From: a virus | IMG/VR virus record: IMGVR_UViG_3300034066_002191 | DNA length: 64,000 bases | Strand: one strand, 5' to 3' | Shown: positions 28,250 to 63,964 of the stretch, in pieces | Layout of the letters: every line of letters starts with the position of its first letter | Position numbering within the stretch: the stretch's first letter is position 1 | The notes under the pieces: generated by a model | The model's input: the letters and a program-made list of their open reading frames with translations, nothing else | What the model was told of the DNA's origin: nothing | The model's database searches: none | Made by a program: the position numbers and the translations under genes

Positions 28250-30951
28250 TAATTTTTACCAACGCAATCTACTACACTTATAATTTGTTGTCCGGAATAT
28301 CTATTAGGATCTTCTTCTATTAAATCTCCAATTCTATTTACACAAAGTTTTGCGACTATTTGGACATTAAAACCAGTTTTAGATTCTACCGTAATTTGCG
28401 GAAACTCCGTGAATCCTATTCCACCACTAATAATATCTACTCTTATAAGTGCACCATTTGAATCAAATTTTGGAGACAATTGTGCGCCATTGTCGGGAGT
28501 TATCTTAATTTTGTCTTCTGAAGTGTACCCAATCCCAGGATTCAATATTTCAACTTCACAAATGTAAAGCATAACTGGATAATTTCCAGTTTGAGTGGTC
28601 GGAGATAATCCTCGAATAATATTTTGATAATTTTCTGGTGGCTGTGGGGCAATATATTCAGTATCTTCTTTTGGTCTAAATTCGTCGCCACCAGGAGGAG
28701 TAACATAATCACATTGTCTCAACTGAATTGTTGATCCTGGAGAATATGGCAATTCATATTTCCCATCACTTCTACGAACAATTGTATCTTCTGGATTTGC
28801 CCAAGTTCTCCCTTCTCCTCCAAGACTACCATCAGGTGCTGGCAAATAATTATATCCAGATTCGACAACTAAAACGGAAACTACTCCTAGATCCTCTGGG
28901 TCTATTGCAATTGGGGATTTTCTAGTAGAAATAAATGGCTGAATTGGTGGACAGCCAACTACATCTGTAGTTCCATCTGGTACACTTCCAGATTCTCCAT
29001 TATCTGGATTATTAGGATCATTTGGGTCTCCATATTTACTTGGATCATCAAAATCATCTAAGTCTAATGGAACATTAATAATATCTCCTGGTTCTATTGT
29101 GGGAGTTTGTTGTATTCCATTTACTCTTACAATCAAAGATTTTTCACTGTATTGTCCATATTTTCCTATTGCTTTTACTGTATATGTTGTATTTTGAGTT
29201 GGGCTGACATTCACTGTTCCAGATAATTCGGAAGAGCCAAAATTTGTTTGCACTCTTTTGGCTCTTTTAGTTTTCCATTTTAATTCTACTGTAGTTGAAT
29301 TAATTGTCCTGCCAGTAAATTCTAGTTCTGGTGGAATGATTCCAACTTTAGTTTTGACTACTGCTCCCTTCCCTTTTCCACAGTCATCTACAATAGATGC
29401 AAATGGAGTACTTGAATATCCAGAACCAAAACTAGTAATATCAATTCCTAACAATTCTCCAGCAGAACTTATGATGGTATTTCCTGCGGCTCCGGACCCA
29501 CCACCACCAAAGAAAGATATTCTAGGAGGACCACAAAAAAGTGGAGCACCACTACAAGATAAATCACTCAAAACATCATTAAAGTTCAAATCAAAGTCAT
29601 CAATATCTACTCCCAACAAAGAACCAGTGTCTGGATCATAAACAGTTTTTGCTATATTTCCTACTTGCTGTGCGAAACTTTCTGCTTTTTTTACGATGCT
29701 GTTTAGATCTAGATTGAATCCTTCTGTGTTGTCTCCTGCAGCTGAAAGTAAATTCCATTTATTTACTTCAGGACATTTGTCATTTGGTTCGCAATTAAAC
29801 AAAGAAAGTAGATCAATAATAAAATCCAAAACTTGTGTCACAAGTCCCGTAATCTGCCCAATGATGGATGCAACTGCACCAAGAACTGAAGTGATTAATC
29901 CTAATATTTTTCCAATTAAAGAAGTTAATAAATTTTCGATTGCACACAAAGGAACGGTAATAAATCTATCAACCATGTCAAGTAAAAGATTAACAAGAGC
30001 ATCTGTTATCTTATCAAGTATTTTATTGAACAAACAATATATTGCCTGAACTAATATATTCTGTCCTTCTCTAATTGGAAATCTTGCATTTAAAGGTAGT
30101 GCATTTGAAGTTGCAACTGATGCAGCATTTATTTTTTTAAGTATTTCTTCCTGTAACCATTTAATTTTTCTGGATATCCAACCAGATATTATTTCAGCAT
30201 ACTTGTTTACTTTTCCTTGTATTTCATTTATAAAGTCAAGTCGATTAGCAGCAAATTGATTAACTTGTCTTTTGATTCTTTCTACATCTTTAATTAAATT
30301 CGATAAAGCAGTTTTTACTGCATTTGCATCATCATTTCTTTTTGGACATGGTAAGTCCAAATCACTTTCAAATGGCTGTAGATTTAAATCAAAATGACTG
30401 TATGTTATGTCCCAAGCATTTGGTAATATTTGTGCCTTATCATAATGAAATGTTGGGAGAACTGCATTTTTTGAGTTCTCCCAAAAAGAATCTAATCCAA
30501 AAGAAGGATTTGGATTAGGTCCAGTATAAGAAACATTTTCGTATATATTTCTATAATTCAGTCCAATTACAACTGGCTTTCCAATATAACCATTTTTAAA
30601 TCTTACTCTTACGGCATCTCCAGGCTTAATTTGTGGGGTATCTCCTGTTGCAAGTGCACCACTACCAGATGTCAATGGGACATCTATATCAGCCCAAGGA
30701 AGTTTTTGGTCTGGTAATTGCGTTTTATCTGGGGTATGGACTTGATTTATTCTGACTTTTACTTTTGGTTTTGCTGTTGCTTTTGGGTTGCCATCCTTAT
30801 CTTCATCTTGTAATTTTTCTTGTAGTGTTTTTCTTTTCCCTGCATCAGTTTCTGATATCCAACTACAAGCAACTACTATACCATCATAAGTTCCAGTATA
30901 CTTATACTCATCCAATTCACCGGAACTTTTATATCCCCTTACATCCATCAT
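28249..30951 (-). CDS. gp5-like baseplate hub protein (OB-fold N-terminus, no lysozyme domain seen)
   Basis: KVKVRI..VHT...LPWA...GDAVRVRF..G..KPVVIG OB-fold signature; gene context. Confidence 0.7.
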   Translation of the reverse strand: MMDVRGYKSSGELDEYKYTGTYDGIVVACSWISETDAGKRKTLQEKLQDEDKDGNPKATAKPKVKVRINQVHTPDKTQLPDQKLPWADIDVPLTSGSGALATGDTPQIKPGDAVRVRFKNGYIGKPVVIGLNYRNIYENVSYTGPNPNPSFGLDSFWENSKNAVLPTFHYDKAQILPNAWDITYSHFDLNLQPFESDLDLPCPKRNDDANAVKTALSNLIKDVERIKRQVNQFAANRLDFINEIQGKVNKYAEIISGWISRKIKWLQEEILKKINAASVATSNALPLNARFPIREGQNILVQAIYCLFNKILDKITDALVNLLLDMVDRFITVPLCAIENLLTSLIGKILGLITSVLGAVASIIGQITGLVTQVLDFIIDLLSLFNCEPNDKCPEVNKWNLLSAAGDNTEGFNLDLNSIVKKAESFAQQVGNIAKTVYDPDTGSLLGVDIDDFDLNFNDVLSDLSCSGAPLFCGPPRISFFGGGGSGAAGNTIISSAGELLGIDITSFGSGYSSTPFASIVDDCGKGKGAVVKTKVGIIPPELEFTGRTINSTTVELKWKTKRAKRVQTNFGSSELSGTVNVSPTQNTTYTVKAIGKYGQYSEKSLIVRVNGIQQTPTIEPGDIINVPLDLDDFDDPSKYGDPNDPNNPDNGESGSVPDGTTDVVGCPPIQPFISTRKSPIAIDPEDLGVVSVLVVESGYNYLPAPDGSLGGEGRTWANPEDTIVRRSDGKYELPYSPGSTIQLRQCDYVTPPGGDEFRPKEDTEYIAPQPPENYQNIIRGLSPTTQTGNYPVMLYICEVEILNPGIGYTSEDKIKITPDNGAQLSPKFDSNGALIRVDIISGGIGFTEFPQITVESKTGFNVQIVAKLCVNRIGDLIEEDPNRYSGQQIISVVDCVGKN

Positions 30952-31160
30952 TCCTCATACACCCTACATTCTAAGGCATCTGGATTTTCATCGCAAAATA
31001 ATTGAAAAGAGTTTGGAGTATACTCTGTATTTGGATGTCTTTCGATATATGCCAGTAATCTTTCTAATTCATTTTCCAAGTGCCTTCTTCTTTGCTTGGA
31101 ACATTCCGAGTCTAGTTCTTTTTCTATTTGTAAAACTGTTTCGTAGATTGGTGTTTGCAT
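30948..31160 (-). CDS. cp12: CP12 Calvin-cycle inhibitor
   Basis: RRRHLENEL and C-terminal FQLFCDENPDALECRVYEE CP12 signature. Confidence 0.9.
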   Translation of the reverse strand: MQTPIYETVLQIEKELDSECSKQRRRHLENELERLLAYIERHPNTEYTPNSFQLFCDENPDALECRVYEE

Positions 31161-32455
31161 TAGGTTATTCTCCTGCCATAGGAATCTCGAACTAAGTTCA
31201 ATCTAGTATATGAAGGTCCATTAGTTGAGATATAATGGCATAGGTCTACTATCATATATAGGCCAGATTTTTTTGGACTTATGATTTGAGTTTTCTTGGA
31301 CGATATTTCTGGAAAATGACATTCAATCATGTCTCCCGCATGTAAAGTCAAATCTGCAAATATTGTAATTGAAGCCTCTATCGCAAACAATTGTTGATAT
31401 CTCATTTTAGATTGATTTATAATTTCTGTCACGATTAGATTTTCTTCATTAGAGCGACTTAGCTGTTCTTCATAATTTTTTCCTGGCGATGTATGCCCTT
31501 TATCAGCATAACTAAAATTTATTGAGGATGTTCCTTGTAATTCCGAATCAAAATTTGGTAATGTCTTTCCAGCTTTTTTGATTCCTTTTTCTTGATCTTC
31601 TTTTGTTAAATTGTTTGGTCTGACTTTATCCAAAACTGGATCATAAACATATAATTGAGAACCATACGATCCTCTTCGAATTAAATTCAAGGCATCCACT
31701 GAACTACTAAATTCTGGTGCTGCTAATATTTTTCCATAATCACCAGATGGAACTCCAGTAGTATTAGTGTATATGAATTTCTTTTTTGGTGACTGACCTA
31801 ACAAAATATCAATTGATTTAAATTTAAATCCTTCCGAAGTTTCATAGAAAAAATACCCAGCTGTTTTTCCTTTTGCTGATGGTAAATTTGGAACCGCTTT
31901 TGGTGCTAACCAAATTATAGCATCTCGTACAGTCCAATCAATAGAACCATTAAATCTTAAACTATTAATAGTTGGATCAATATCTACTGGCTTCTTTGTT
32001 TTCAATACTGACTTTAAAATTGTGTTTACAGAATCTGATATTCTTCCTTCATACGCACCAACAACATAATAATCAGTAATAAATTTTTTTAAAAACTCTG
32101 TTGTGCACAAATTAAAAGATAAAATTTCTTTTTTTGTATCAAACAATACTGGATTTCCTCTGAAAATTCTCAGTGCAGTAGCATCAGTATTAAAATTTAA
32201 CTTATTACCATTCTCATCTGAAAATGACAAATAGACCTTTTCTGTTCCTTGTATGTCAGTATCATCCAATTCAGTAGCAGAAGTATTGCTATTGTTATTT
32301 CTGTATCCAGTGTCAACGAATTCTATCTTCGAGGATATTGAAGTTTCTAAAATGCTTTCATAATATGTAAATTTGGTCAATCCTGTATCAAAATAAGTTT
32401 GGGTTCCATTCTTTATGGATTCTATGACAAATTGAGTAGGATTTATTTTCTGCAT
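31160..32455 (-). CDS. gp27-like baseplate hub protein
   Basis: YYESIL, GYFFYETSEGFKFKSID and SGLYMIVDLCH motifs; position between gp5 and the tape-measure-like genes. Confidence 0.6.
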   Translation of the reverse strand: MQKINPTQFVIESIKNGTQTYFDTGLTKFTYYESILETSISSKIEFVDTGYRNNNSNTSATELDDTDIQGTEKVYLSFSDENGNKLNFNTDATALRIFRGNPVLFDTKKEILSFNLCTTEFLKKFITDYYVVGAYEGRISDSVNTILKSVLKTKKPVDIDPTINSLRFNGSIDWTVRDAIIWLAPKAVPNLPSAKGKTAGYFFYETSEGFKFKSIDILLGQSPKKKFIYTNTTGVPSGDYGKILAAPEFSSSVDALNLIRRGSYGSQLYVYDPVLDKVRPNNLTKEDQEKGIKKAGKTLPNFDSELQGTSSINFSYADKGHTSPGKNYEEQLSRSNEENLIVTEIINQSKMRYQQLFAIEASITIFADLTLHAGDMIECHFPEISSKKTQIISPKKSGLYMIVDLCHYISTNGPSYTRLNLVRDSYGRRIT

Positions 32456-32478
32456 TGGTTTTTAATCTTATGTATTAT

Positions 32479-35400
32479 TTACGCTGTTGGAGTCATGGCA
32501 AGTATTAATGTATTTGTTATTACATCTGGATTTGATGCTGCACTATCTTTTGCTATGTCTGGTCTAGATAATGGCATTGGAGCAAACTGTGCCTTTGCGA
32601 TTGATTGAGACTGTGTTGGGGGCTTAATATTTGATTGCGTTCTAAATATGTCCCACCAAGGTTTTTCTTCTTTTGAGTTTAGCTTCGGTTTATTTTTATT
32701 CTTTTCTTCTAATAATTTTTGATTGAATTCTGCATTTGTTATTTTATTCCCTACTAAATTTGTCCAACTACCGTCAGCACTTTGTGTCCATGGCATTCCT
32801 CCAATTGTAGCAGTTCTTCGCTTTGGTGGTTGATTTGGTGATGGAGTCTGTGGTGGTGGTTGATTTGGAAGCGGCGTATTTTTTCCTTTTGTATCGTAGG
32901 CACCTCTAGTGAATCCCACATGCAAATGATCATAATGATTCCCATCATATTGTCCACGAGTAACTGATGGCTGCCCAGCAAACCAATATCCATAATGATC
33001 ATATATTAGAGCTTTAATTCCATATGAATTTCTGTTATTATATAAATGAACAAACAAACTAGTAAGTCTTGCAATTTCTCCTTTATTTTGTGGTGGTTGT
33101 CCTCTATGATCTGTAACATCAAATGCATTTGTAGCATGATCGGCACTGGCATGACCACCAACACGAGAATTACCTTTTGGATTAAAACCTCCAGGATTCG
33201 GTTCAAATTTTGGCCAGGCATTATTAGTAAAATATTTATTTTCTCCAACGGTAAATCCTTGTTGTAGAATCCATTTTCCTACTTGTATTAAATTCCCACC
33301 AGCAGCAGCAACAGTTCCAGTGACTATGCCCCTGTTTATTTCGGCTGGTCTCAATTGACCAGCTTTAAATTTTCCAATAGTTGCTCCCCTAGGCTCAAAT
33401 CCAAATGCATGTCCCGCTCTTCTTACTTCAGTTTCGTCAGCCAAATGATCATTTTTATCTTCAAATGATATAGATCTAAAATTATCTCTTGGTCCAACAA
33501 AATCTCTGGCGGATCTTTGTCTTGTTGTATCTAATAATGCTGCCGCAGCTGCTTCTAATTGGGCTTGATTTCTTCCTTGACTTTGTACATACTCAATTGC
33601 ACTTTGTTTATTTGTTATTTTTGACCATGCTGCGACTCCTCCCTTTTCTCTAACAGGTTGGAATTGTGTCGGATTTAAAATTGTATTTCTAATACTTCCT
33701 CCAGTTTTCCAAGGATCTCCCGGCATCGCAACTCTATTATAAATTGCTTGGGCAACATCTGCGTATCCTTGTGGACTTATTCCTTCAAATAATGCTGCGG
33801 TTGCGAGCAACCAAAAATCTGGACTATCACTACTAACTATTATGTCTCCAGCTTCTCCGAGACTTGGTGATATTCTTCCTTCAGGCTCTTCTCCTTTTAA
33901 ACCCATCTCTCTTCTAAGACTCTGGAATATTTCATTTGTTCTAGAGTTCAAGGCATTCTGGAAGGAGCGAGATATTGCCGCACCTAGTTGTTCTCCGATT
34001 GATGGCCCAGTTCTCAAAGTTCTTGATGCTGGTATAACTCCACCTTCTGCTGCAGCGACAATCGATCTCTGAATTTGATTAACTTCTTTTGATGATTGTG
34101 CAGCTATTGCATTATCGATTAATGTGGCAAAGTTATTTTTAATTTCTAGTCCAAGTAAAGGATCTGGTTTTTGTCCTAAAGGTAAATTTGATGTCGCAAC
34201 CATGATTCCACCAAAAAGTGGATCACGATTTTTATTCATGATTTCTGAAATATTTTTTAATGCCCTTAATGGGTTTTTCTTTCCTGGTTTTTTTGGCGAT
34301 GCAAATACTTTTTTAATTTGCTTCAATCCACCAACATTTTGTCCTGGCTGTGGAGCTTGTCTTCTTGATCTTTGTAATCTCTTTGTTCTTCTAGGTGTTG
34401 TCCTAGAAATAGTTCTACGAATTGGTCTTCCGCCTCTTGTTATCGCACCGCCAGCTGCTTTTTTCTGTACCTTTTCTCCCTGACCTTGCATTGATGTCGT
34501 GGCATCAAATAACGATCTACCAACAATGTCACCAAGTAAACCACCCCAAATAGGTCCACCAAAAGGAATCAATGCAGGAAAACTACCTAATGCTGCACCA
34601 ACTGCTGCACCAACTGCACCAGCAGCAGCTCGATCTGGTCTCTCTTTGAATATCAAGGTACTAATTAAAAAGTCAGCGATCGGACCAATTATAGGAACCT
34701 TTCCTAATATCTTTGCTCCTCCTTTTCCTAATAGTTTTAATGATGCACGCTGCTGTACATTACCTAAACCTCGTGCTCCTATATTGCCTGCCGTTCTCCC
34801 TTTCCCAGCAAGTCCACCAGTGGGAATTGTCCTCTGAGAAAATCTTTGCCTGACAGCACCTAAAGCTTGAGCTGGAGTTGATCCACGATTAATTTTATCT
34901 TGATATAATCGTGCCGCATCAAAGCCATACTTTTTGGTAATTGCCTCTTGTGCACGAGTTTGATTAAAATATTGTGACAATCTAGTGGGAGATTGTCCTC
35001 GTGGACCTACCCCAGGTCTAGGACTAATTCTTGTTGGTAATTTTTTTCCGCCACCGCCAATAGTGCCGGAACCAGCAATTGCAAGTCCAACAATAATAGC
35101 AGTATTTAAAAATTTGTTTAATGTGGAAGATAATTCATCAAACTGTTTTTCAAATTTTTCTCCGCCAACTTGCTTTGCGAGTGCTCTTACTTTGTCATAT
35201 TGTTCATATCCAAGATCAATTGCATCAACAAAATTTTTAAATACAGAACCAACAAAGTTTTCAGTAAATTTTATAAATGGATCTATGAACTTTAATGTAC
35301 TTAGTATTTTAGGGAGAAACTTTACCAACTTAGTAAAGGCAAATCCCATAAAAGTATAAAGAATGAAGTTACGGATTGCATCCAAAAATCCAGTTTTAGG

Positions 35401-35685
35401 CAATGCCCCTTGTAAATATTTTAATGGATTAATAAGTTTTGGTGTTTCTGCTTGTTTTTCTTGTTGTTGCCTCGTTCGTGTGATTCCTTGTCTTCTTTGT
35501 TGTTCCGTTTGTTGTCTCTGTAAAGAAGCATTAGATTTAACTAAAGTTTCAATTTTCCTTAAACTTTCATATATCGATTTTAATACACCAAGTGCAGTAT
35601 TTCCAGAAGAAACAGGAGAGTTCAGTGTTACTCTTCTTGTTCTCGGTATTAATGGAGTAGTAGGTGTTGCAGTTGGTGTTGCCAT
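32479..35685 (-). CDS. Tape-measure-like virion protein with SleB-like hydrolase and C-terminal Zn-peptidase-like domain
   Basis: LFEG..QGYADVAQAIYNRV...ILNPTQFQP; DHATNAFDV...NHYDHLHVGF; glycine-zipper hydrophobic segment. Confidence 0.65.
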   Translation of the reverse strand: MATPTATPTTPLIPRTRRVTLNSPVSSGNTALGVLKSIYESLRKIETLVKSNASLQRQQTEQQRRQGITRTRQQQEKQAETPKLINPLKYLQGALPKTGFLDAIRNFILYTFMGFAFTKLVKFLPKILSTLKFIDPFIKFTENFVGSVFKNFVDAIDLGYEQYDKVRALAKQVGGEKFEKQFDELSSTLNKFLNTAIIVGLAIAGSGTIGGGGKKLPTRISPRPGVGPRGQSPTRLSQYFNQTRAQEAITKKYGFDAARLYQDKINRGSTPAQALGAVRQRFSQRTIPTGGLAGKGRTAGNIGARGLGNVQQRASLKLLGKGGAKILGKVPIIGPIADFLISTLIFKERPDRAAAGAVGAAVGAALGSFPALIPFGGPIWGGLLGDIVGRSLFDATTSMQGQGEKVQKKAAGGAITRGGRPIRRTISRTTPRRTKRLQRSRRQAPQPGQNVGGLKQIKKVFASPKKPGKKNPLRALKNISEIMNKNRDPLFGGIMVATSNLPLGQKPDPLLGLEIKNNFATLIDNAIAAQSSKEVNQIQRSIVAAAEGGVIPASRTLRTGPSIGEQLGAAISRSFQNALNSRTNEIFQSLRREMGLKGEEPEGRISPSLGEAGDIIVSSDSPDFWLLATAALFEGISPQGYADVAQAIYNRVAMPGDPWKTGGSIRNTILNPTQFQPVREKGGVAAWSKITNKQSAIEYVQSQGRNQAQLEAAAAALLDTTRQRSARDFVGPRDNFRSISFEDKNDHLADETEVRRAGHAFGFEPRGATIGKFKAGQLRPAEINRGIVTGTVAAAGGNLIQVGKWILQQGFTVGENKYFTNNAWPKFEPNPGGFNPKGNSRVGGHASADHATNAFDVTDHRGQPPQNKGEIARLTSLFVHLYNNRNSYGIKALIYDHYGYWFAGQPSVTRGQYDGNHYDHLHVGFTRGAYDTKGKNTPLPNQPPPQTPSPNQPPKRRTATIGGMPWTQSADGSWTNLVGNKITNAEFNQKLLEEKNKNKPKLNSKEEKPWWDIFRTQSNIKPPTQSQSIAKAQFAPMPLSRPDIAKDSAASNPDVITNTLILAMTPTA

Positions 35686-35686
35686 A

Positions 35687-38116
35687 TTATGCTAACCCAT
35701 ATGCTCTAAGATTATCTTCACGATCTCCTAATGGAGATTTAGTGGAGAAAGTTGGAACCTGCGTTCCTCCGGTTGAAGTGGGAGGTGTAGATCTTGCAGC
35801 CGCAACTGGAATTTCTGTAAATGTAACTGTTCCTTGTCTTGCAACTCTTGGTCCTGGTTGTTTGATATCTGGAGAAGTAGGAACAAACATTGCATCAGAT
35901 TTTTTGATTCCAGTAAACTGCAATAAACTATCTATAGATCTCTCAAAAAAACTTTTTGGTTTTTGTTTTGGTTTTGGTGGAGCTGGTGGCGCTTGAAATT
36001 GGACTGGAATTGGAGCAGGTTTATTTCCATAGTTTCCTTGATTTACAAAGAAATTTGCTTGTGGATTTCTTAATACATCTCCCTCTTCAGGCTTCATATA
36101 TTTTTGTTGACTTACTCCATAAAATGCAGTTCTTGTCCCAATAAATCTCTGTGCCTGTTGCTGTAATTTGACATTCTTCAGTGCTTTTTCTGTATCTGAT
36201 ATTTCCTTGAGAGCCGACTGCATATTCCAACCATATTTTTTCCCTTTTGTGGAATTCATAACAGCAATGGCAGCTGATTTTCTATCATTAATATTTGACC
36301 AATCTTTCATGTTGTCAAAAATTGGTTGGTATTGCTTCGGTGCAAGAATAATATCTTTGATTGAATTTTTAGATTGATTGAAATTTGCCCCATATTTGTT
36401 GGATGCCTGAAGTCGATTATAAATTGACTGAGCCACATCAGCTCTTCCTTGTGGGGTCGTATCTTCTAATGCTGAAATTGCAAGGAGCGAGTTATAATCT
36501 GCTGCACTCAATTTTGGTCCTACTACTCCACCATCTTTTGCTAATTGAATGTTGTTTACAAATTTTGGTTTTCTTCCGGACACAAATTGATACAAATTCA
36601 ATCCTGTTTGGCTTTCTACTTTCTTTGCGTCTTCAGGAGTCAATACAATTTCTCCTGGTCTTGCTGCAACTAATTGTGTATCAGGTCCAGCACCAGTAAT
36701 ATTCAATCCAGAATCACGAGTAATTTGCTGACTTCCATCAGTTGCTATCTGTTCTATTCCCATAGAACTTGATTGATTTTTAGGTATCATTCCACCACTT
36801 CTAAATGCATAAGATGATGGAAGTGGTTGAGGTTTTGTTCTTTGATTTTCTTGTTTCTTTGGTTCTTCTGGCTTTAACTTTCTTGTCTGATCTGGCCCTT
36901 CTTTTTGTTTCAATAGTTGATATCCACCATACGCTGCAGCAACTGCAGCACCAGTATATAAAGAACGAACTCCAAATGTTTTCAATAGTTTTAATATACC
37001 AGGTATTCCAATTGCACGAATATATTTGGTAAGATTGATTGCTAGACCGACTGTAGATCTTATAAACTTACCAAATCTTGTCCCAAATAATATAAAAGTC
37101 CCGAGTATTGCTGGCCACCAATCTTTAAAGAATCGTTTTAAGGATTCAATTTTTTCTTTATTCTTTGGATCCGAAATCCATTTCACTAGTTCAGTGAAAG
37201 CCTTTCCTAGTAGAGTATAAAATATAAAATCAAAAATACGATCCAATATACCTTTTACTGGAGATATAACCTTTTCAAATGCGGCATAAGTTTTTTTTGC
37301 AGAAGATTCTAGAGCACTTTCTGCTTCTTGTCTCTTTTTTTGTTCTTCTGTAATTCTTGTGGTTCTTTGTGTTCTTATTGTAGTTGCTCTTTGGGAAGAA
37401 AGAGAAGCTAATATATTGTCTACTGATTTTTGTATCTTTAATAGTATTTGTATGACTGGGGCATCTCCTCCACCTGAGAGGGCACTAGAAGCTCCTGTAG
37501 GACCTATTGGAGGCTGATTTCCACCACCAGTAACGGCACGAGATCTTTGTGTTATTGCTCTGCCAATGTTTACATTACGAGTTCTGAATCTAGGCTGAGA
37601 TGGTTGAACAAACCTTCTTGCTGATCTTGGGGTTGGCTGTCTTCTTTGTGGTTGTCTTCCTGCTCTTTGTATTTCTCCTAAAAGTTCTTCGATTTTGTCC
37701 TTAGTTTCCTCATCTTCATCGTCCTGGTTATCTTGTTTTTGTTGGGCAGGAGGAGTTGGTGTAGTTCTTCTAGGAGGAGTTGGTTTTTTATTTGGTGCTT
37801 TTGGTGGTCTTTTTGATGCTGTTGGTTTTTTATTTTTCTTCTGTTCTTTTTGATATGCTTCTACTTGTTTTAATACTTTATCATGGACTTTACCAAAGTC
37901 CCCTTCCAAAGAATCTTCTTCAAATTCGTCATATTCATTTTCTGATATGGGAAACTCATCTCCTGGATTTGTTTCCACATACCATTTTACAACATAATAA
38001 TATAGTTCAGGATCTGCAGTCTCATTGATTCCTAAGTTTTTGGCAAAAATTATGGCATAGTTTTTTGACCTATTTCTAGGAAATTTAATAGTATCAATAG
38101 ACCATTTCTTTGCCAT
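35687..38116 (-). CDS. Paralogous tape-measure-like protein with SleB-like hydrolase domain
   Basis: ALED..QGRADVAQSIYNRL...ILAPKQYQP; shares the FIxYT..G.AFT.LVK segment with its neighbour. Confidence 0.65.
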   Translation of the reverse strand: MAKKWSIDTIKFPRNRSKNYAIIFAKNLGINETADPELYYYVVKWYVETNPGDEFPISENEYDEFEEDSLEGDFGKVHDKVLKQVEAYQKEQKKNKKPTASKRPPKAPNKKPTPPRRTTPTPPAQQKQDNQDDEDEETKDKIEELLGEIQRAGRQPQRRQPTPRSARRFVQPSQPRFRTRNVNIGRAITQRSRAVTGGGNQPPIGPTGASSALSGGGDAPVIQILLKIQKSVDNILASLSSQRATTIRTQRTTRITEEQKKRQEAESALESSAKKTYAAFEKVISPVKGILDRIFDFIFYTLLGKAFTELVKWISDPKNKEKIESLKRFFKDWWPAILGTFILFGTRFGKFIRSTVGLAINLTKYIRAIGIPGILKLLKTFGVRSLYTGAAVAAAYGGYQLLKQKEGPDQTRKLKPEEPKKQENQRTKPQPLPSSYAFRSGGMIPKNQSSSMGIEQIATDGSQQITRDSGLNITGAGPDTQLVAARPGEIVLTPEDAKKVESQTGLNLYQFVSGRKPKFVNNIQLAKDGGVVGPKLSAADYNSLLAISALEDTTPQGRADVAQSIYNRLQASNKYGANFNQSKNSIKDIILAPKQYQPIFDNMKDWSNINDRKSAAIAVMNSTKGKKYGWNMQSALKEISDTEKALKNVKLQQQAQRFIGTRTAFYGVSQQKYMKPEEGDVLRNPQANFFVNQGNYGNKPAPIPVQFQAPPAPPKPKQKPKSFFERSIDSLLQFTGIKKSDAMFVPTSPDIKQPGPRVARQGTVTFTEIPVAAARSTPPTSTGGTQVPTFSTKSPLGDREDNLRAYGLA

Positions 38117-38121
38117 TTACT

Positions 38122-38298
38122 TTATAGGGATGCCTTTTTTAATTTTGCCTCTTCTTCCTCTAAATGTTGATTTAATAATGCCACATAGATGTCCCTTTCC
38201 CATGGCATTAAATTTTCAATCTCAGTCAAAGAATATTTATGATACTGCATCATCGAGAAATTTAACTTGAAATAGTTTTCAAGGTCCATATGGGACAT
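38122..38298 (-). CDS. gp51-like baseplate hub assembly catalyst
   Basis: Hand-translated 58 aa: MSHMDLENYFKLNFSMMQYHKYSLTEIENLMPWERDIYVALLNQHLEEEEAKLKKASL*; missed by the ORF track. Confidence 0.85.
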   Translation of the reverse strand: MSHMDLENYFKLNFSMMQYHKYSLTEIENLMPWERDIYVALLNQHLEEEEAKLKKASL

Positions 38299-38300
38299 TC

Positions 38301-39020
38301 CTATGAGAAAAAACTTGATAACCCTTCAAGAACAACTTCAGATTCGACTTTTGTATTTGGATTTTTTACTTTTACCGTATGGGATAATTTCGGCATAGTC
38401 TCAAAGAATTTTTCGATTTCTTTGAATTGTGTAGAATTCATCTGATCCAAAAATTCTGTAATTTCTTTTCTAGTCACATCAGAAGATGTCCAGACTTCTT
38501 CTTCCGTATAAATTTTATCGACGCAATCAGCAATCATTTCAAATGACTGTTCTGTTGCATTTTGATCAGAAAAATCAAAGTTGTTTTTGATGAACTGCTC
38601 CAGAGATGGATACTTCATTTCCATCATAATTGAATCATCAACTTTAATTTTGTTTGTATGGTCTTTATTTTTTTGGACTTGGATATCATCAATATTAATT
38701 TTTACTGGAACTGTAGTTTCTCCATCATCAGGACAAATGATGGAAAGCTCTACTTCTTCGCCAACTGATTTAGCACGAATATTCAAGAACAAATATTCGA
38801 TATCAAAAGTAGGAAGGGATTCTACTTTAATACCTTTTGTCTCGATGCAATTTTTAATTACAGTTTTGATTGCTGTAGTAATTTGTTTTGTATCTTCTGA
38901 TTCCAATGCAAGTAAAAGAAGTTTTTCTTCTTTTACGAGAAATGGTCTATATTTAATTGTTTGTCCGGTTGATGGCAAATCCAGATCAAAAACTGGTGCA
39001 ACAATCTTAGGTAAAGGCAT
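38301..39020 (-). CDS. gp26 baseplate hub assembly protein
   Basis: MPLPKI...LPSTG..IKYRPFLVKEEK...FDIEYLFLNIRAKSVGE. Confidence 0.92.
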   Translation of the reverse strand: MPLPKIVAPVFDLDLPSTGQTIKYRPFLVKEEKLLLLALESEDTKQITTAIKTVIKNCIETKGIKVESLPTFDIEYLFLNIRAKSVGEEVELSIICPDDGETTVPVKINIDDIQVQKNKDHTNKIKVDDSIMMEMKYPSLEQFIKNNFDFSDQNATEQSFEMIADCVDKIYTEEEVWTSSDVTRKEITEFLDQMNSTQFKEIEKFFETMPKLSHTVKVKNPNTKVESEVVLEGLSSFFS

Positions 39021-39057
39021 ATTATATGAATAATATTAAATTCGTTTGATTATTTAT

Positions 39058-39849
39058 TTACCTTCGGTTTAACCCATTGAAGAATTCTTGGTCAGTACCA
39101 AAGGCTGGGCCAAATTTTGGTGTTTGTTGTGTTGGATTTGGCGCGACAATTTGATCAATTTTACTAGAACTAACAATATAACGAGTATAAGCAAACGATA
39201 CAGTACACTTCAATACCTGCGATGCCTCATAAGAAACCGGCATGGACATAATAGACATGGGATATGCATCAATAAAAACATAACTTAAATTTTTACTTCT
39301 ATTAATAGAATTTGGTTGTCCCTGTAACCCACCATAATCTCTTTCGAATTTCGTAAGACTTATGTTTGTTCTATATTGTGATCTGTCACCACCATCATTT
39401 CCATCTGGATAATTAATTCTATAAGAATATCTTTTACTTTCTAATCCTAAATTGTCGATATCTACATACTGTTCATCAACAATATATTGCATCCAAAACT
39501 CAAAAAATTTAATTACCTCATAATTGCTATCAACATAAAAAGTAAAATCGGCACGATCATCATACACTCTCCTATACGGAATCTTTTCTGTAACTCCAGT
39601 ATAATCCGTTACATCATGAGTATACAAAGTTGACCCAGGAAGAGTAGCATCACAACACGACAAATTAATTAACTCTTGATCAAAAGTAGCATCCGGACTT
39701 TGACTGAATGCTGTTCTTTTATCTGAGTACCATTTTGACAGACTTGGTGGAATATTTACTTGAAATTGGAAATGTGAAGTCAAAGCTGGGCGTAAAAGCT
39801 TTGACTTTATATCGTCTAGTTTATATGGCCTTGGTCCTACGATTGCCAT
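39058..39849 (-). CDS. Tail-tube-like protein (gp54/gp19 family)
   Basis: CCDATLPG...FTFYVD...FFEFWM...AYPMSI...VLKCTVSFAY. Confidence 0.7.
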   Translation of the reverse strand: MAIVGPRPYKLDDIKSKLLRPALTSHFQFQVNIPPSLSKWYSDKRTAFSQSPDATFDQELINLSCCDATLPGSTLYTHDVTDYTGVTEKIPYRRVYDDRADFTFYVDSNYEVIKFFEFWMQYIVDEQYVDIDNLGLESKRYSYRINYPDGNDGGDRSQYRTNISLTKFERDYGGLQGQPNSINRSKNLSYVFIDAYPMSIMSMPVSYEASQVLKCTVSFAYTRYIVSSSKIDQIVAPNPTQQTPKFGPAFGTDQEFFNGLNRR

Positions 39850-39884
39850 CTAAATATTTTTAACCTTTATATATTATTTAGAAG

Positions 39885-40331
39885 TTGGCAAAGAATTATA
39901 TACAAGGATTCTATTCACCATCAAATCCAGAAAAGTATGCTGGAGATCCCAGAAACATAGTATATCGATCGTCTTATGAACTAAGAGCATTCAAATGGTG
40001 TGACTTATCTGAGAGCATTATTTCTTGGGGATCCGAAGAAGGTTGGATCCCATATAGAAATCCAGCCACAGGAAAAACACATCGATATTTTCCGGATCTT
40101 TTTATTAAAATTAAAGAGTCAAATGGAGAGATCAAAAAGTATCTAATAGAAATAAAACCCAAACGACAAACAATTCAACCAAACCCAACTCCAAAAAAGA
40201 AAACTAAAACCTGGCTGAATGAGATGAAAACATATCAAGTCAATCAGGCAAAATGGGAAGCAGCAGAAAGATTCTGTCAAGAAAATGGAATTATATTCAA
40301 GATAATTACAGAAAAAGAACTTGGAATCTAA
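39885..40331 (+). CDS. gp4 head completion nuclease (TnsA-like)
   Basis: NPEKYAGDP..IVYRSSYE...WGSEE...HRYFPD...IEIKP...NQAKW; TTG start. Confidence 0.92.
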   Translation: MAKNYIQGFYSPSNPEKYAGDPRNIVYRSSYELRAFKWCDLSESIISWGSEEGWIPYRNPATGKTHRYFPDLFIKIKESNGEIKKYLIEIKPKRQTIQPNPTPKKKTKTWLNEMKTYQVNQAKWEAAERFCQENGIIFKIITEKELGI

Positions 40332-40334
40332 GAA

Positions 40335-40943
40335 ATGTTCAGACCACTAAACAATCAAGCTCGTAGACTTTGGGCCATATTTGGAACAGTCAGAAAATGG
40401 TTTTCGGAATTAACTAAATCCACTGAAAGAAAACTTCAAAGACAAGAAGAAGAATTAAATTTCGAAGAAGGAAAGCTCAGAAAGGAAGGAGCAAGAGTTT
40501 ATGTTTACGGTGAACTAGATAAAAAAAGAAAACAATTAGAACAACAAAAAGAAGAGTTCTACAGCTTCAAAAATTTAATCGACAATCTTCCAAAAAATAG
40601 ATCTCCTAATTTTTACTTTGATGCTTTAGTTGATATTCTTGCGAGAATGGGAAGAACAGAAGAATCGGTAGAGATTGGGAAAATTTATACATTTAAGTAT
40701 ATTGCGATCACTGAGGGGAAGTGGTACGATGTCCATCCAGTAAGTTTAATAGTCAAAAAAGGGAAAGGATACTATCAAGGAGTTAATTATCATTGGGAAA
40801 GAAGACCAGAATATATTGAAAGTCCTATCAGAACTTATAATTATGCCAGAATCCAGTCAATGTTTTATAGAATTAAACCACAAGAATTGGAGTATGTTCT
40901 GAGAGTTCCTTCTTTTTATCCTGTCTTTATTTCAAGGCGATAA
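40335..40943 (+). CDS. gp2-like DNA end protector
   Basis: GKIYTFKY...WYDVHP...GVNYHW; adjacent to gp4. Confidence 0.55.
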   Translation: MFRPLNNQARRLWAIFGTVRKWFSELTKSTERKLQRQEEELNFEEGKLRKEGARVYVYGELDKKRKQLEQQKEEFYSFKNLIDNLPKNRSPNFYFDALVDILARMGRTEESVEIGKIYTFKYIAITEGKWYDVHPVSLIVKKGKGYYQGVNYHWERRPEYIESPIRTYNYARIQSMFYRIKPQELEYVLRVPSFYPVFISRR

Positions 40944-41023
40944 ATAAATATAAAACTAATATAAATGTCTCATACTCTACGAAAAATTGAGATAACATTG
41001 TCCCTTATGTGGAGGGATTTCTG

Positions 41024-42400
41024 ATGGCAACTCCGGCAAACAATGTCACTATTTGGTCCCCTAAAACTGGAAGCATTTTAAATGGACCGATTAAAATTTC
41101 TACTCCACCATCAAATACCAAAAAAGACAATATACAAAAAGATTGGTCCAAATTAAATACAAATAGTGCAAATAGTGCAGTAAGAAATTTAGAGTATAGA
41201 ATAAATGACAAAAATGCAGTAGAATTTAGATATCCTACAACTTCTGACCCAAATGGACCCAAAACAACAGCAAATAGCATACAAGAAATAGCAGATGATA
41301 GATTGTATGTCGCAAATTATGGGTATACAGGAACAACCACAACTTTAATAAAAGACGCACTACAAAGACAATTAACCGCCGAAGCAGAATCAATCGAATG
41401 GTTTCCTCCGCCTCCTCCCGCACCTATTCCTTCTGGCGGAGGAGGTGCGGGAGGAGACGATGACGAGCAACAAACAAATCTTTCAGAGGCAATAGAAAAT
41501 CTAGGAAGAATAAATGATGTAGAAGCAAAAGAATTTGGGGAATTGAGATACCCAATAGGATCAGCTACAAATGGACAAGACTATATTCAATTTACTGTAT
41601 TTGAATATTTGCCACAAGAACGATCAGAAAGCAATTTAACATATAATGAAAAAAATACATTTAGTGGAAAAGAAAAGGGATTGGGAAGAATATTTCTACC
41701 AATACAACCAACTATTATGGATACAAATACAGTAAGTTGGGGAGAAGATAAGTTTGGAATTTTAGAAATGATAGGTGCCAATCTTTCTTTGGGAGCAATG
41801 ACTGGAGATAGTGCAGATGAACTAGCCACAAAATTTACAGAAACAGTCACTACCTCTGGAAATAAAATAGATCCAAAAATAGTCAGTGCAGTCCAAACAT
41901 ATCTGGCTAAAATGGCAGTAAGTTCAAACAACAACTTACTTTCTAGATTGACTGGAGCAGTAACAAATCCAAATTTAACTCTATTATTCAATTCACCTGA
42001 ACTAAGAAATTTTAATTTTAATTTTAAATTGACTCCAAGAACACAAAGTGAAGGAACAATAGTAAGAAAAATAATAAGAGTTTTTAAACAATATATGGCA
42101 GTACAAAGAAGTGCTGGCAACTTATTTTTAGAAGCTCCATGTATATTCAAGATAAGGTATATCAGGGGAGTCGATAGATTCAATAAAGAAAGAGATTTAG
42201 ATCACCCGGCATTAAATAGAATTAAAACTTGTGCACTCAGAAGCTTTAGTGCAAATTATACTCCCGCTGGCTCTTATGCGACATATAATGATCCAGCAGG
42301 AACAATGAGTTCTTATGATTTAACAATGTCATTTACTGAATTAGATCCTGTATATTGGGATGATTATAATGGAATACCAGTCGATCAAATAGGTTACTAA
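41024..42400 (+). CDS. gp48 baseplate tail-tube cap
   Basis: LRYP...DYIQF...NPNLTLLFNSPELRNFNFNFKLTPR...LTMSFTELDP; ATG 41024 preferred over GTG 41009; ATAAATA at 40940-40946. Confidence 0.85.
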   Translation: MATPANNVTIWSPKTGSILNGPIKISTPPSNTKKDNIQKDWSKLNTNSANSAVRNLEYRINDKNAVEFRYPTTSDPNGPKTTANSIQEIADDRLYVANYGYTGTTTTLIKDALQRQLTAEAESIEWFPPPPPAPIPSGGGGAGGDDDEQQTNLSEAIENLGRINDVEAKEFGELRYPIGSATNGQDYIQFTVFEYLPQERSESNLTYNEKNTFSGKEKGLGRIFLPIQPTIMDTNTVSWGEDKFGILEMIGANLSLGAMTGDSADELATKFTETVTTSGNKIDPKIVSAVQTYLAKMAVSSNNNLLSRLTGAVTNPNLTLLFNSPELRNFNFNFKLTPRTQSEGTIVRKIIRVFKQYMAVQRSAGNLFLEAPCIFKIRYIRGVDRFNKERDLDHPALNRIKTCALRSFSANYTPAGSYATYNDPAGTMSSYDLTMSFTELDPVYWDDYNGIPVDQIGY

Positions 42401-60507: not shown

Positions 60508-60630
60508 TTATCCCCAGTAAATCTGACCAAGAGTGAATAAAACAAACACAAGAACTGTGAATACCATCATACCTACACCTGCCCAGATTACCCAGGGTTC
60601 CATAGGATGATGTTGATTATTATGAGACAT
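60508..60630 (-). CDS. Small single-TM protein (40 aa)
   Basis: MSHNNQHHPMEPWVIWAGVGMMVFTVLVFVLFTLGQIYWG*; start overlaps the endonuclease stop. Confidence 0.6.
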   Translation of the reverse strand: MSHNNQHHPMEPWVIWAGVGMMVFTVLVFVLFTLGQIYWG

Positions 60631-61060
60631 TTTGTTGGTGCTTTTGTAGATATTTAATCATTTCTTCCAAAAGATTTGTATTATCCCCTACCTGCCCCAA
60701 CACCATATTACAATTTCTACAAAGCAATTGACGAACTTTTCCGGTTTTATGGTCGTGGTCTACACAAAGTTTTTTCCACTTACCGTCACCATCAGATTTA
60801 CAAATAGCGCAAACACCACTTTGTTCTTCATACATTTTGGTGTGTTCATCAAGAGTAATACCATAAAGTCTTTTCAGGTCATTATTTTTAGTTCTTTCTG
60901 GATTTTCCTGATGTCTTGATTTCACTCTTACTTTATCGCATTCCTTACAAGATGAATGTCGAACTCCAGTTTTTTTATTACGGACATAAAACTCAGTAGT
61001 AAGTTTTTTTTCACCGCAGGACATACAGGTTCTATACAGGTCAGAGTATAGTTTAGTCAT
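60620..61060 (-). CDS. Free-standing endonuclease VII-type homing endonuclease (F-CphI-like)
   Basis: N-terminal CxxC..CxxC; YGIT...Q..VCAIC...LCVDHDHKTGKVRQLLCRNCN; immediately downstream of psbA. Confidence 0.85.
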   Translation of the reverse strand: MTKLYSDLYRTCMSCGEKKLTTEFYVRNKKTGVRHSSCKECDKVRVKSRHQENPERTKNNDLKRLYGITLDEHTKMYEEQSGVCAICKSDGDGKWKKLCVDHDHKTGKVRQLLCRNCNMVLGQVGDNTNLLEEMIKYLQKHQQNVS

Positions 61061-61130: not shown

Positions 61131-63798
61131 TCACCCGATGGTTGGTGCAGTCAAGGCAACAGGAGTGTTGCTAGCAGCAGCAAGATCAAGTGGGAAGTTG
61201 TGAGCATTCCTTGTGTTTTAACCTTTGTCGCCAAAGGGAGCGGACTATATCATCACTCATAAGAGTGTCGGACGCTAGTGGCGTATTACGGATGAAGCGT
61301 CATCCACCGCCTAGTCTCTGAACCTTCCTTACACGCTTGCAAGGCTTGGCTGCTGATTGTCTACGAGAGAGTTCCAGCAATTCATCCGATTTAACGAGCG
61401 CCATGCGTTCACAAAACGCTCGTGCATTACCTCCATTCCTAGTCCTGCTCTTGTCAATACATCAGCCCAAGTGTTAATCACATGACCTTGATTGTCTTGA
61501 ATGGACTGGTTGAAATTAAATCCGTTCAGGTTAAATGCCATAGTACTAACACCAAGGGCAGTAAACCAAATACCAACTACTGGCCAAGCGGCAAGGAAGA
61601 AGTGTAGTGAACGGGAGTTGTTAAAGGACGCATATTGGAAAATAAGTCGTCCGAAGTAACCGTGAGCCAATTATCCAAAAGTTTCCTTAAGGGTTGGACT
61701 ATATCTTCACCTATTAAAGGTGCTGGGCGCTCTTGCCTGTTATTAAGAAGACTGAACTTCTCAGGTAGTCTCTGAACCTTTCCTAGATGTATCTAGGACT
61801 TGGATGCTGATTGCCATATCCATAAAGGACTTAGGTTCCCAGCAGTTCACCCAGTTTAGCGTGACCCGCTCTGTCAAGCCACGATGTTATAAGTCTCTTC
61901 TTCTTGACCGAACTTGTAACCATAATTCTGTGACTCGTTCTCAGTGGTTTCACGAACCAGTGAAGAAGTAACCAGAGAACCGTGCATAGCACTGAACAGA
62001 GAACCACCGAAGACACCAGCAACACCCATCATATGAAAAGGGTGCATAAGAATGTTGTGCTCTGCTTGGAATACAAGCATGTAGTTGAAAGTTCCGCTGA
62101 TACCTAGAGGCATTGCATCACTAAAACTACCTTGACCAAAAGGATAGACCAGGAACACAGCACTCGCAGCAGCAACAGGTGCGCTGTAAGCAACACAGAT
62201 CCAAGGACGCATACCTAGACGGTAGGAGAGTTCCCATTCACGACCCATATAGGCATAGATGCCGATGAGGAAGTGAAATACAACGAGTTGGAAAGGACCA
62301 CCGTTGTAAAGCCATTCATCAAGACTTGCTGCATCCCAAATGTTGTATAGGTGCAGACCAATTGCATTAGAACTTGGTACTACGGCACCACTGATGCCTT
62401 CCATGAAATCCACTCTTCATCTTCATGAGGTACCCAACCTTCTAAAAATGAGGAGACCATAGACCTAAGTGAATAATGGGGAAATCTTGTACTTTTCGCC
62501 CACGCTTTCGCAGTAGGCTTTGGTTTACCAGAAGAAATCCAAATTTCATAAATTTCATCTGCGACCAACCAAGGTTTTATATTTTTACCCTGTTTCCACT
62601 TAGAAACTTTTTTAGCAACTTCGGGATTTTTCATTGGATTACTATCGCCAGATAGTATTGGGAGATTATTAGAGAGAGAAACTAATTTACTTTTCTCCAC
62701 ATTTCTAGTCCAATGATTATCACCAATCGCACCATTCCATTTTTCTGGATTAGTTTTTCTTGGGTGAGTTTTTCCTTTTAAATGTTCCCAATATTGGGGA
62801 TTTTTATGTCTGGCGTGATTTTCGCCAGTTCCCCAACCTTGAGGTTCATTTGATAGATTTAAACAACCATCATTTCCATAGTGCAAAGAGAGCATTTCTC
62901 TTTCAGTTCCTCTAAGATTGGTATCTTCATTAAATATTTCTAGGAATACCCAATCATCAGGATACTTTTTTAGAGAATTATGGAAGTGGTCGTTTCCCTT
63001 AAACTTTCTATGGAATCTTTCTCTTTTTTGAGAGTCATTGCGGTAGAACCCCAATAATAATCACCGTTAGAAAGTCTTAGTGCTAAGTAAGTTATCATGG
63101 AAGTTAGACTATATCTTCATCCTTTATTAATTATATCATAAAGGAGTTGGGCGCTCAAGCCTGTTATTAAGAGGACTGAACCTCTCAGGTAGTCGTTGAA
63201 CCTTTCCAAAGTGTACTTTGGACTTGGCTGCTGATTGGGGTGGTCTTCCCTTTCCAGCAATTCACCCAATTTACTTTTCACGATTACTCGTGAATGACAC
63301 CATCTAGATGTTGTTGCCGTAAAGTAGAGAACCAGCAACTGGTTCACGAATCCCGTCGCATCATCTAACAAACAACCATATCTTTTGACTTAGGTTGCTT
63401 CTGTTGATTAGTCAACAGTAGATGTGTGGACTATATCTTCACCCTTCATAGAAGGAGCTGGGCACTTAAACCTGTTATTAAGAGGACTGAACCTCTCAGG
63501 TAGTCTCTGAACCTTCCTCAAGTGTACTTGAGGCTTGGCTGCTGATTGCCTTTCGGTTTCCAGCAATTCACCCAGTTTCGTCAATACTCTTACGAGTAAG
63601 GGACACCGATTAGTTAATGTCTACGGGAGGTGCTGCAATAAATGCAACAATAAAACAGATAGTTGCCGCAAGAAGGCAAGGAATCATAAGAACTCCGAAC
63701 CAACCAACATACAGCCTATTATCGGTTGAAGTTACCCAGGAACAGAATTGTTCCCAGAGGTTTTCGCCAGAACGGCGTGAAGCGATTGAAGCAGTCAT
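61131..63798 (-). CDS. psbA: Photosystem II D1 protein, five exons
   Basis: Exons 63798-63617, 63358-63308, 62396-61877, 61667-61416 and 61208-61131 total 1083 nt = 360 aa + stop; the joins restore PVDIDG, GNNIISG, NIVAAHG and MHERNAH. Confidence 0.96.
61209..61415 (-). mobile_element. Group I intron psbA-i4 (207 nt, after Arg334 in standard numbering)
   Basis: P1 CGAGCGU/GCGCUCG with U.G; cores AATTGCTGGAA, AATCAGCAG, GTTCAGAGACTA, ATGATATAGTCC; ends in G. Confidence 0.93.
61668..61876 (-). mobile_element. Group I intron psbA-i3 (209 nt, after Ala250)
   Basis: P1 GUGGCU/GGUCAC; P10 GAGC/GCUC; R GTTCAGAGACTA and S AAGATATAGTCC; ends in G. Confidence 0.93.
62380..63098 (-). pseudogene. Intron-encoded GIY-YIG homing endonuclease split by a -1 frameshift (degenerate or recoded)
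   Basis: ATG 63098 gives [25 protein letters not shown], which stops at 62970. The -1 frame from the A6 run (63029-63024) continues RERFH...FHNSLKKYP...EREML...CLNLS plus NUMOD-like repeats to TAG 62380. Confidence 0.8.
62397..63307 (-). mobile_element. Group I intron psbA-i2 (911 nt, within Ile77) carrying the endonuclease gene after the S element
   Basis: P1 ACAU/GUGU; P10 GAUG/CAUC; P, Q, R (GTTCAACGACTA) and S (AAGATATAGTCT) cores; ends in G. Confidence 0.93.
63130..63158 (-). promoter_or_regulatory. Intron-internal sigma70-like promoter for the GIY-YIG gene
   Basis: TTGAGC-N17-TATAAT with extended TG, 31 nt upstream of ATG 63098. Confidence 0.6.
63359..63616 (-). mobile_element. Group I intron psbA-i1 (258 nt, within Ile60)
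   Basis: P1 GACAU/GUGUC; P AATTGCTGGAA, Q AATCAGCAG, R GTTCAGAGACTA, S AAGATATAGTCC; ends in G. Confidence 0.93.
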
Positions 63799-63821: not shown

Positions 63822-63925
63822 GTCCAGGGGGAACTGGATGGTTACAGTATGTCCCACACCACCCTCCAGTGTGGGTATGAGAGACTTTGTTTAACCTCCC
63901 CATAGGTCTCGGTTAGGAAGAGGAA
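63822..63925 (-). ncRNA. Structured psbA 5' leader, PhotoRC-II-like RNA motif
   Basis: CCTCTTCC/GGGGAGG stem whose loop GAGAC can pair with a downstream GTCTC; CCCACAC/GTGTGGG and TCCAG/CTGGA hairpins; position upstream of a phage psbA. Confidence 0.7.
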
Positions 63926-63964
63926 CAACATTAAGAACTTGTTACATTTCTTAACTTGTTGATG

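Follow-up and report, generated by a model that had tools for sequence, protein, structure and literature searches.

Two related group I introns with a common guide sequence flank a 51-nucleotide micro-exon in a cyanophage psbA gene

Why two neighboring group I introns should carry the same guide sequence, and whether the short exon between them can be lost during splicing, are the questions raised by the psbA gene of the virus record IMGVR_UViG_3300034066_002191 from IMG/VR. This gene, which encodes the D1 protein of photosystem II (PSII), lies on the minus strand in the last 3 kb of the 64,000-nucleotide (nt) stretch of DNA analyzed here (hereafter, the window), and is interrupted by four group I introns. 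The explanation that we favor, and hold to be probably correct, is that exon 2 is a micro-exon enclosed by two paralogous mobile introns of the IA type, whose common guide would stem both from the coding constraint on the exon ends and from common descent, and that skipping of exon 2 would be a minor by-product of splicing, devoid of function. The boundaries of the gene parts, set by direct reading of the sequence together with scripted joining of the exons, are the following:

63798-63617, minus strand: exon 1, 182 nt, with the 3′ end ...GUAGACAU
63616-63359, minus strand: intron 1, 258 nt, starting with UAACUAAUCGGUGUCCC and ending with ...GAUG
63602-63607, minus strand: guide of intron 1, in which GUGUC and GACAU of exon 1 form P1, with a U.G pair at the splice site
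63358-63308, minus strand: exon 2, a micro-exon of 51 nt
63307-62397, minus strand: intron 2, 911 nt, starting with CUAGAUGGUGUCAUU and ending with ...GAAGG
63296-63304, minus strand: guide of intron 2, GAUGGUGUC, in which GGUGU forms 4 base pairs with the exon and 1 with the intron at the cognate ACAU|C
62380-63098, minus strand: gene for the GIY-YIG homing endonuclease of intron 2, interrupted near 63030, where a −1 frameshift lies at an A6 run
62396-61877, minus strand: exon 3, 520 nt, starting with CAUCAGUGGU and thus opening with CAUC, the P10 partner of the intron 2 guide
61876-61668, minus strand: intron 3, 209 nt, of the same family as introns 1 and 2, with a different guide, GGGUCAC
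61667-61416, minus strand: exon 4, 252 nt
61415-61209, minus strand: intron 4, 207 nt, a group I intron more distantly related to the others, inserted at the MHER|N site and 99% identical to the copy in phage S-SRM01
61208-61131, minus strand: exon 5, 78 nt, stop codon included

Once joined, the five exons give a 1083-nt open reading frame (ORF) encoding a normal D1 of 360 amino acids (aa). Because this D1 has one additional N-terminal residue (E189 is found at position 190), exon 2 encodes canonical residues D61-N76 together with parts of I60 and I77, D61 and E65 being included; exon 3 starts at residue 78 of the solved D1 chains. Removing exon 2 keeps the frame and leads to a product reading ...PPVDI-ISGAVV..., from which 17 residues of the lumenal loop (canonical D61-I77) are lost.

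Both 5′ splice sites read ACAU| and, given that exons 2 and 3 begin with C, introns 1 and 2 each split an AUC Ile codon after AU, intron 1 at canonical Ile60 (site 1) and intron 2 at canonical Ile77 (site 2). The guide GGUGUC is present in each of them, occupying 63607-63602 (intron 1) and 63301-63296 (intron 2) on the minus strand; a U.G pair is found at both splice sites, and the terminal intron G is located at 63359 and 62397, respectively. Translation into either intron meets an in-frame stop, UAA (63612-63610) two codons into intron 1 and UAG (63306-63304) immediately inside intron 2. Exon 1 has the 3′ end GACAU (63621-63617), which serves as 5′ splice site for intron 1 and at the same time matches the guide of intron 2 perfectly: all five positions of GACAU pair with GUGUC, compared with four of five for the exon 2 end, AACAU, in which the first A lies opposite C. 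This final C of the intron 2 guide (63296), unpaired with exon 2, pairs with the G of GACAU in exon 1. As for P10, intron 1 pairs UCG (63609-63607) with CGA of exon 2, a pairing that covaries to AGA/UCU in the IMG/VR contig L034, and intron 2 pairs GAUG (63304-63301) with CAUC of exon 3 over 4 base pairs (bp). The local P1 hairpins have computed energies of −4.4 kcal/mol for intron 1 and −3.8 kcal/mol for intron 2, the latter with a 5-nt loop. As bare duplexes on the intron 2 guide, the cognate exon 2 end reaches −3.3 kcal/mol and the exon 1 end as it stands in the precursor −5.7 kcal/mol, while the ligated exon 1-exon 2 junction, GACAUC, is complementary at all six positions and reaches −7.0 kcal/mol.

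These results bear out the observations from which the original prediction of exon skipping had started, namely two introns inserted at ACAU|C inside Ile codons, a guide GGTGTC in both, an exon 1 end that pairs better with the intron 2 guide than the cognate end does (5 vs 4 bp), and an exon 2 of 17 codons whose in-frame loss would remove D61 and E65; the splice sites read on the minus strand, the duplex energies, and the exon joining with D1 numbering all agree with them. Its start coordinate, 63300, was misplaced, as it cuts through the guide of intron 2 (63296-63301). The coincidence of the two sites is unlikely to have arisen by chance: the spliced coding sequence contains six ACAU sites, three of them ACAUC, and the probability that two U sites drawn at random from it agree at +1 and from −4 to −2 is 0.005, rising to ∼0.03 when all six pairs that four introns can form are considered.

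All four introns match the Rfam group I model (RF00028) over its full length, with 67.4, 94.7, 90.1, and 78.8 bits for introns 1-4 (gathering score, 50 bits). In the Rfam alignment, a 34-nt insert is located between P7 and P3′ and forms two nested helices with covariation (alignment columns 196-225), which designates introns 1 and 2, as far as their sequence can tell, as IA-type introns with a P7.1/P7.2 insert. A 31-nt block from this insert is common to introns 1-3; it occurs in three copies in the window and was also found in 26 IMG/VR contigs, and a profile search of the fetched loci brought the family to 64 members. Among 36 distinct members, compensatory changes on both sides were observed at 20 of the 38 consensus core pairs, with hardly any pair broken, and the introns are therefore ribozymes under selection.

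Within psbA, members of this family are inserted after about codons 61/62, 78, 93, 109, 184, 219, 251, 299, and 335. At site 1, the same intron, with the first 17 nt identical and the 5′ end UAACUAAUCGGUGUCCC, is present in at least 12 IMG/VR contigs, either with a LAGLIDADG ORF of 150-171 aa (714-778 nt in total) or without ORF (251-258 nt). Intron 1 of the window is the short form, and cores 99% identical to its own occur in IMG/VR contigs. At site 2, the same intron, starting with CUAGAUGGUGUCA.., was found in 11 contigs, nine of which carry an intact 239-aa GIY-YIG ORF; the core of intron 2 is 97% identical to the copy in L002. Both introns, and hence the same 51-nt micro-exon, occur together in four contigs (L030, L031, L033, and L034), while six contigs have the site-2 intron only and ten the site-1 intron only. 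Neither of the two was found in the 80 psbA loci closest to exon 1 of the window, nor in phage S-SRM01. Intron cores are 97-100% identical between contigs whose exon 1 proteins are just 74-87% identical; near-identical cores in such diverged genes point to horizontal homing. Taken together, the distribution indicates that the site-1 and site-2 introns are mobile lineages, each of which would home to its own fixed psbA site.

The alleles with a site-1 intron all have identical exon flanks, TCCCGTAGACAT ... CGACGGGAT (window positions 63617-63628 and 63349-63358; loci L003-L025), and intron-less alleles differ from them at synonymous positions, e.g., GACAT|TGATGG. Such uniform flanks fit co-conversion tracts, or endonuclease-resistant flanks traveling with the intron.

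The family is not limited to these two sites. A single contig, L011 (IMGVR_UViG_3300017963_000395), has at least six group I introns in psbA, at about codons 62, 109, 184, 219, and 251 and near codon 335, several of them with endonuclease-sized inserts. Introns with the identical 31-nt block also split an SU10-type major capsid gene (PF17236) into four pieces in five contigs, showing that the family is confined neither to psbA nor to cyanophages. These capsid-gene contigs (L016, at 2200-3820, L004, L010, L015, and L027) contain up to three introns and have a much higher GC content.

Neither intron 1 nor intron 2 of the window encodes an intact homing endonuclease. Intron 1 has no ORF, and its 3′ tail (63359-63410, minus strand) keeps the last codons, DMVVC and stop, of the LAGLIDADG ORF; it is thus a deletion derivative of the 714- to 778-nt, ORF-bearing site-1 intron. 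In intron 2, the ribozyme core occupies the first ∼205 nt and is followed by the GIY-YIG gene, which is split between two frames (62970-63098 and 62380-63054, minus strand). Nine homologues of the site-2 intron have an uninterrupted 239-aa ORF, reading MTLKKRERFH across the point where the window copy is shifted, and we therefore attribute the shift to the loss of one base in the A6 run, which may represent either real decay or a homopolymer sequencing error. A Pfam search with the two broken pieces of the window gave no match; the family assignment is based on the intact homologue in L031, which matches PF01541. The GIY-YIG ORF of every copy continues past the 3′ splice site, its stop codon being located in exon 3. 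Given the intact ORFs of their relatives, the two introns of the window are decayed members of mobile lineages.

We then considered what the common guide implies for splicing. The guide of intron 2 is able to align exon 1 (through a P1 of 5 bp, or of 6 bp once intron 1 has been removed) with exon 3 (through the CAUC/GAUG P10), whereas the guide of intron 1 has a P10 specific for exon 2 (CGA/UCG) and can form one pair at most with exon 3. A skip would thus consist in the choice of an upstream 5′ splice site by intron 2 and, because the ligated junction GACAUC matches the intron 2 guide even better, would be independent of intron 1. Loss of exon 2 during splicing hence appears mechanistically possible, and the pairings predict a cryptic site of this kind in any phage that harbors the site-2 intron.

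How often it would be used is another matter. It is conceivable that intron 2 frequently uses the upstream GACAU, whether in the precursor or once intron 1 is gone, so that, for instance, more than 10% of psbA transcripts would lack exon 2 as a wasteful or mildly harmful by-product without any role, an outcome that we regard as unlikely. Frequent skipping would agree with the stronger pairing of the exon 1 end (5-6 bp and −5.7 to −7.0 kcal/mol, compared with 4 + 1 bp and −3.3 kcal/mol for the cognate end), with the 4-bp P10 that the same guide forms with exon 3, and with the precedents of Twort orf142 and SIOphi as related in PMC11878797, according to which ∼47% of transcripts are skipped in SIOphi. 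Selection against the cryptic site would, in addition, fit the occurrence of GAUAU at site 1 in three of the six contigs with a site-2 intron only, compared with 15 of the 80 intron-free loci, but the enrichment falls short of significance (Fisher p = 0.10), and a single population may account for two of these three contigs. Skipping is rather expected to be rare, because the cognate P1 forms locally, as a hairpin with a loop of 5 nt, and can do so once the guide is made, because the distal pairing must close a loop of 51-315 nt, and because this pairing competes with the guide of intron 1 (hairpin of −4.4 kcal/mol) and with ribosomes halting at the in-frame UAA, by either of which the exon 1 end would then be held. 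The double-intron arrangement, moreover, persists in at least five phage contigs.

The identity of the two guides may have two sources. On one hand, part of it is imposed by coding: both exon ends are constrained to RACAU by their Asp-Ile and Asn-Ile codons, and GAYAU and AAYAU were found at sites 1 and 2, respectively, in all of the 100+ psbA loci that we examined. On the other hand, the ribozymes may be related by descent. We judged ancestry by trees, setting aside pairwise core identities, which appeared to be inflated by the gap handling of a simple aligner, and built a maximum-likelihood tree of intron cores from an alignment devoid of P1, the guide, and P2. In this tree, the 12 site-2 introns form one clade (support, 91/93) that is nested inside the site-1 introns, the joint clade having a support of 87/92; forcing the site-1 introns to be monophyletic costs 10 log-likelihood units and is marginally rejected (approximately unbiased test, p = 0.045). 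Furthermore, all 12 site-2 introns have retained the C of GGUGUC, a base that at site 2 faces the exon A at position −5 and that would find its partner in the G of GACAU. The two sites share only ACAU|C, their flanks being otherwise unrelated, and the endonucleases belong to different families, LAGLIDADG in the site-1 lineage and GIY-YIG in the site-2 lineage, which argues that the ribozyme moved without a protein recognizing a long DNA site, as reverse splicing predicts.

These data lend moderate support to a descent of the site-2 ribozyme from the site-1 lineage through guide-directed transposition. The suggestion, made along with the original prediction, that intron 2 arose from a transposed intron-1-like ancestor is in this way strengthened by the guide-free tree, the retained C, and a likeness of the sites limited to ACAU|C, with the qualification that the event is old: the long branch of the site-2 introns and the presence of this lineage alone in other phages indicate that it did not take place in this phage. 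Since six contigs have site-2 introns without site-1 introns, the pair found here reflects separate acquisitions.

We consider it improbable that the common guide is instead a matter of pure convergence, with two members of the family reaching their sites independently, their guides adapting to RACAU, and no descent from site 1 to site 2. Convergence would be helped by the exon ends, fixed as they are by the Asp-Ile and Asn-Ile codons, by the unrelated endonucleases, which may have been independent carriers of the two lineages, and by the moderate support of the tree. It is at odds with the grouping of site-2 with site-1 introns, which persists once the guide, P1, and P2 are removed (87/92), with the retention in all 12 site-2 introns of a C that has no pairing role there, and with the quite different guides of the same family at other psbA sites, such as GGGUCAC in intron 3.

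A further possibility is that the skip is a used, and possibly regulated, alternative splice, producing a D1 without D61-I77, and hence without D61 and E65 near the oxygen-evolving centre, that would serve the phage as a reaction-centre protein unable to evolve oxygen. A D1 isoform of this kind was the main idea of the original prediction. If it exists, self-splicing introns would here bring about alternative splicing of a viral photosynthesis gene, with both D61 and E65 affected. These two residues are central to proton release from the water-splitting site. The pairing geometry permits such a skip, it is in frame and removes exactly 17 lumenal-loop residues, and splicing of the psbA intron of phage S-PM2 has been reported to respond to light (PMC5931967). 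Other points count against it. No psbA with a PPVDI-ISG junction was found in IMG/VR, in JGI metagenomes, or in 185,579 genomes, in a scan made at the level of DNA and contigs that excludes a psbA gene devoid of exon 2 in the DNA but says little on RNA; with the degenerate pattern AAPPVDI-ISGA, IMG/VR gave 0 matches. When longer proteins were searched with exon 1, the best identity was 92%, the skip junction was present in 0 of the 120 best D1 relatives, and no spliced product of this phage was recovered. In addition, the arrangement results from independent insertions of selfish introns that mostly occur singly, and GACAU is not kept at site 1 in all phages with the site-2 intron. A 17-residue deletion beside transmembrane helix A would more likely result in an unstable protein. 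We thus view a D1 isoform without exon 2 as speculation, chemically possible and biologically unsupported, and as very improbable in a functional role. Least credible of all is a regular skip yielding a second in-frame psbA mRNA, whose D1 would let PSII move electrons without evolving oxygen and so make splicing a switch of host photochemistry.

Three matches to the skipped junction were obtained outside of IMG/VR (one in JGI metagenomes and two in GTDB genomes). They correspond to one unrelated alphaproteobacterial gene, with 57-59% GC and no similarity to D1 beyond the motif, and were discarded. Separately, one contig, L121 (JGI 3300044971, Ga0453756_0257687), has at 400-440 a cyanophage psbA with an in-frame deletion of ∼38 codons at the DNA level, with the junction GACATTGAT|GCTTCT located between short GATG repeats, a loss that extends beyond the whole segment equivalent to exon 2. 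Since this contig retains an intron after codon ∼299, it does not represent a processed copy, and either a defective allele or an artefact of assembly may be the explanation.

Returning to the micro-exon between paralogous introns, we propose the following course of events. Most likely through reverse splicing, a site-1 ribozyme would once have entered the next ACAU|C, which lies 51 nt downstream, and the resulting site-2 lineage would later have acquired a different homing endonuclease, of the GIY-YIG type, with the unpaired C of the intron 2 guide as a probable relic of its site-1 origin. Introns 1 and 2 would have reached this phage by separate homing events, and both would have lost a working endonuclease gene in it, intron 1 by deletion and intron 2 by frameshift. 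During normal expression, each intron would use its own local P1 hairpin and P10, so that both are removed and the full 360-aa D1 is made. Because the guide of intron 2 fits the exon 1 end, and the junction GACAUC better still, a side reaction in which exon 2 is lost is to be expected to some extent, and we judge it to be minor and nonfunctional.

Several points weigh against this proposal. The activity of the introns as self-splicing elements, normal splicing included, is one that we infer from their sequence. The bare duplex of the exon 1 end on the intron 2 guide is stronger (−5.7 kcal/mol unspliced and −7.0 kcal/mol without intron 1) than the cognate one (−3.3 kcal/mol), and the figure of ∼47% skipped transcripts for the SIOphi gene (PMC11878797) means that skipping might not be minor here either. 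Regarding descent, the nesting in the tree has moderate support, and the site-1 introns nearest to the site-2 clade, those of the window and of L034, both co-reside with a site-2 intron, so that gene conversion could mimic the nesting. Finally, as the identity of the guides is largely forced by the exons, it is by itself weak evidence of ancestry.

Group I introns in phage genes, psbA included, are already known (PMC5931967, PMC8557907), whereas site 1, site 2, and the twin arrangement are not described in the literature that we searched. The locus is a clear case, found in nature, of a lineage of group I ribozymes that apparently moved by 51 nt, to a second site fitting its guide, and afterwards gained another endonuclease. 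It also supports the view of psbA of uncultured, mostly freshwater cyanophages as an intron hot spot, with at least six introns in one contig compared with one per gene in the searched literature.

Ectopic transposition of group I introns by reverse splicing is known from experiments with the Tetrahymena intron and has been inferred for rRNA introns. As in these cases, the new site here shares with the old one only the nucleotides that pair with the guide (4-6), without extended similarity of the flanks, and the derived lineage appears, with moderate support, to be nested in the donor lineage. Unlike them, donor and target are 51 nt apart in the same protein-coding gene, and the event is deduced from phylogeny only.

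The closest parallels for the skip are two phage genes. Exon skipping in orf142 of Staphylococcus phage Twort, which contains three group I introns (Landthaler & Shub 1999, cited in PMC11878797), had been invoked as a precedent in the original prediction, and is indeed reported as such in the citing paper; in Bacillus phage SIOphi, an exon is skipped in about 47% of the gene's transcripts (PMC11878797). As these cases are presented there, the psbA locus resembles them in having several related group I introns in one phage gene, with a short internal exon between them, and in that joining is possible between the 5′ splice site of one intron and the 3′ splice site of the following one. It departs from them, on the same account, in that their skipped junction was seen in RNA while ours is predicted from pairing only, and in that psbA is an auxiliary photosynthesis gene in which the skip is in frame.

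The surroundings of the gene allow a comparison with two cyanophages, for which two more features of the window are needed:

63839-63933, minus strand: leader RNA motif of the PhotoRC-II type, a hallmark of cyanophages, located upstream of psbA (Rfam RF01717, 79.2 bits)
60620-61060, minus strand: free-standing Endonuclease VII-type gene directly downstream of psbA (Pfam PF02945, E = 2.8e-26)

In phage S-PM2, psbA has a group I intron that undergoes collaborative homing with the free-standing endonuclease F-CphI (PMC6083498, PMC5931967). The window is similar in that a PhotoRC-II leader lies upstream of psbA and an Endonuclease VII-type gene directly downstream, where F-CphI sits (PMC6083498). 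It differs in its four introns, S-PM2 being described with a single psbA intron (PMC6083498, PMC5931967), and in that the relatives of introns 1 and 2 carry LAGLIDADG or GIY-YIG genes of their own.

Among sequenced relatives, Synechococcus phage S-SRM01 (MW015081; PMC8557907) comes closest over the 3′ two-thirds of psbA (89.9% identity) and shares introns 3 and 4. The 90% identity of exons 3-5 and introns 3-4 to this phage differs from the situation at positions 30000-42000 of the window, for which megablast against 50,697 phage records gave no match; the phage seems, at the sequence level, to be without a close sequenced relative and its psbA region to be a mosaic. S-SRM01 has no intron at site 1 or site 2, its region from exon 1 to exon 3 is continuous, and it possesses a different intron after codon ∼92. 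The place of the Endonuclease VII-type gene of the window, downstream of psbA, is taken in S-SRM01 by a homing endonuclease gene.

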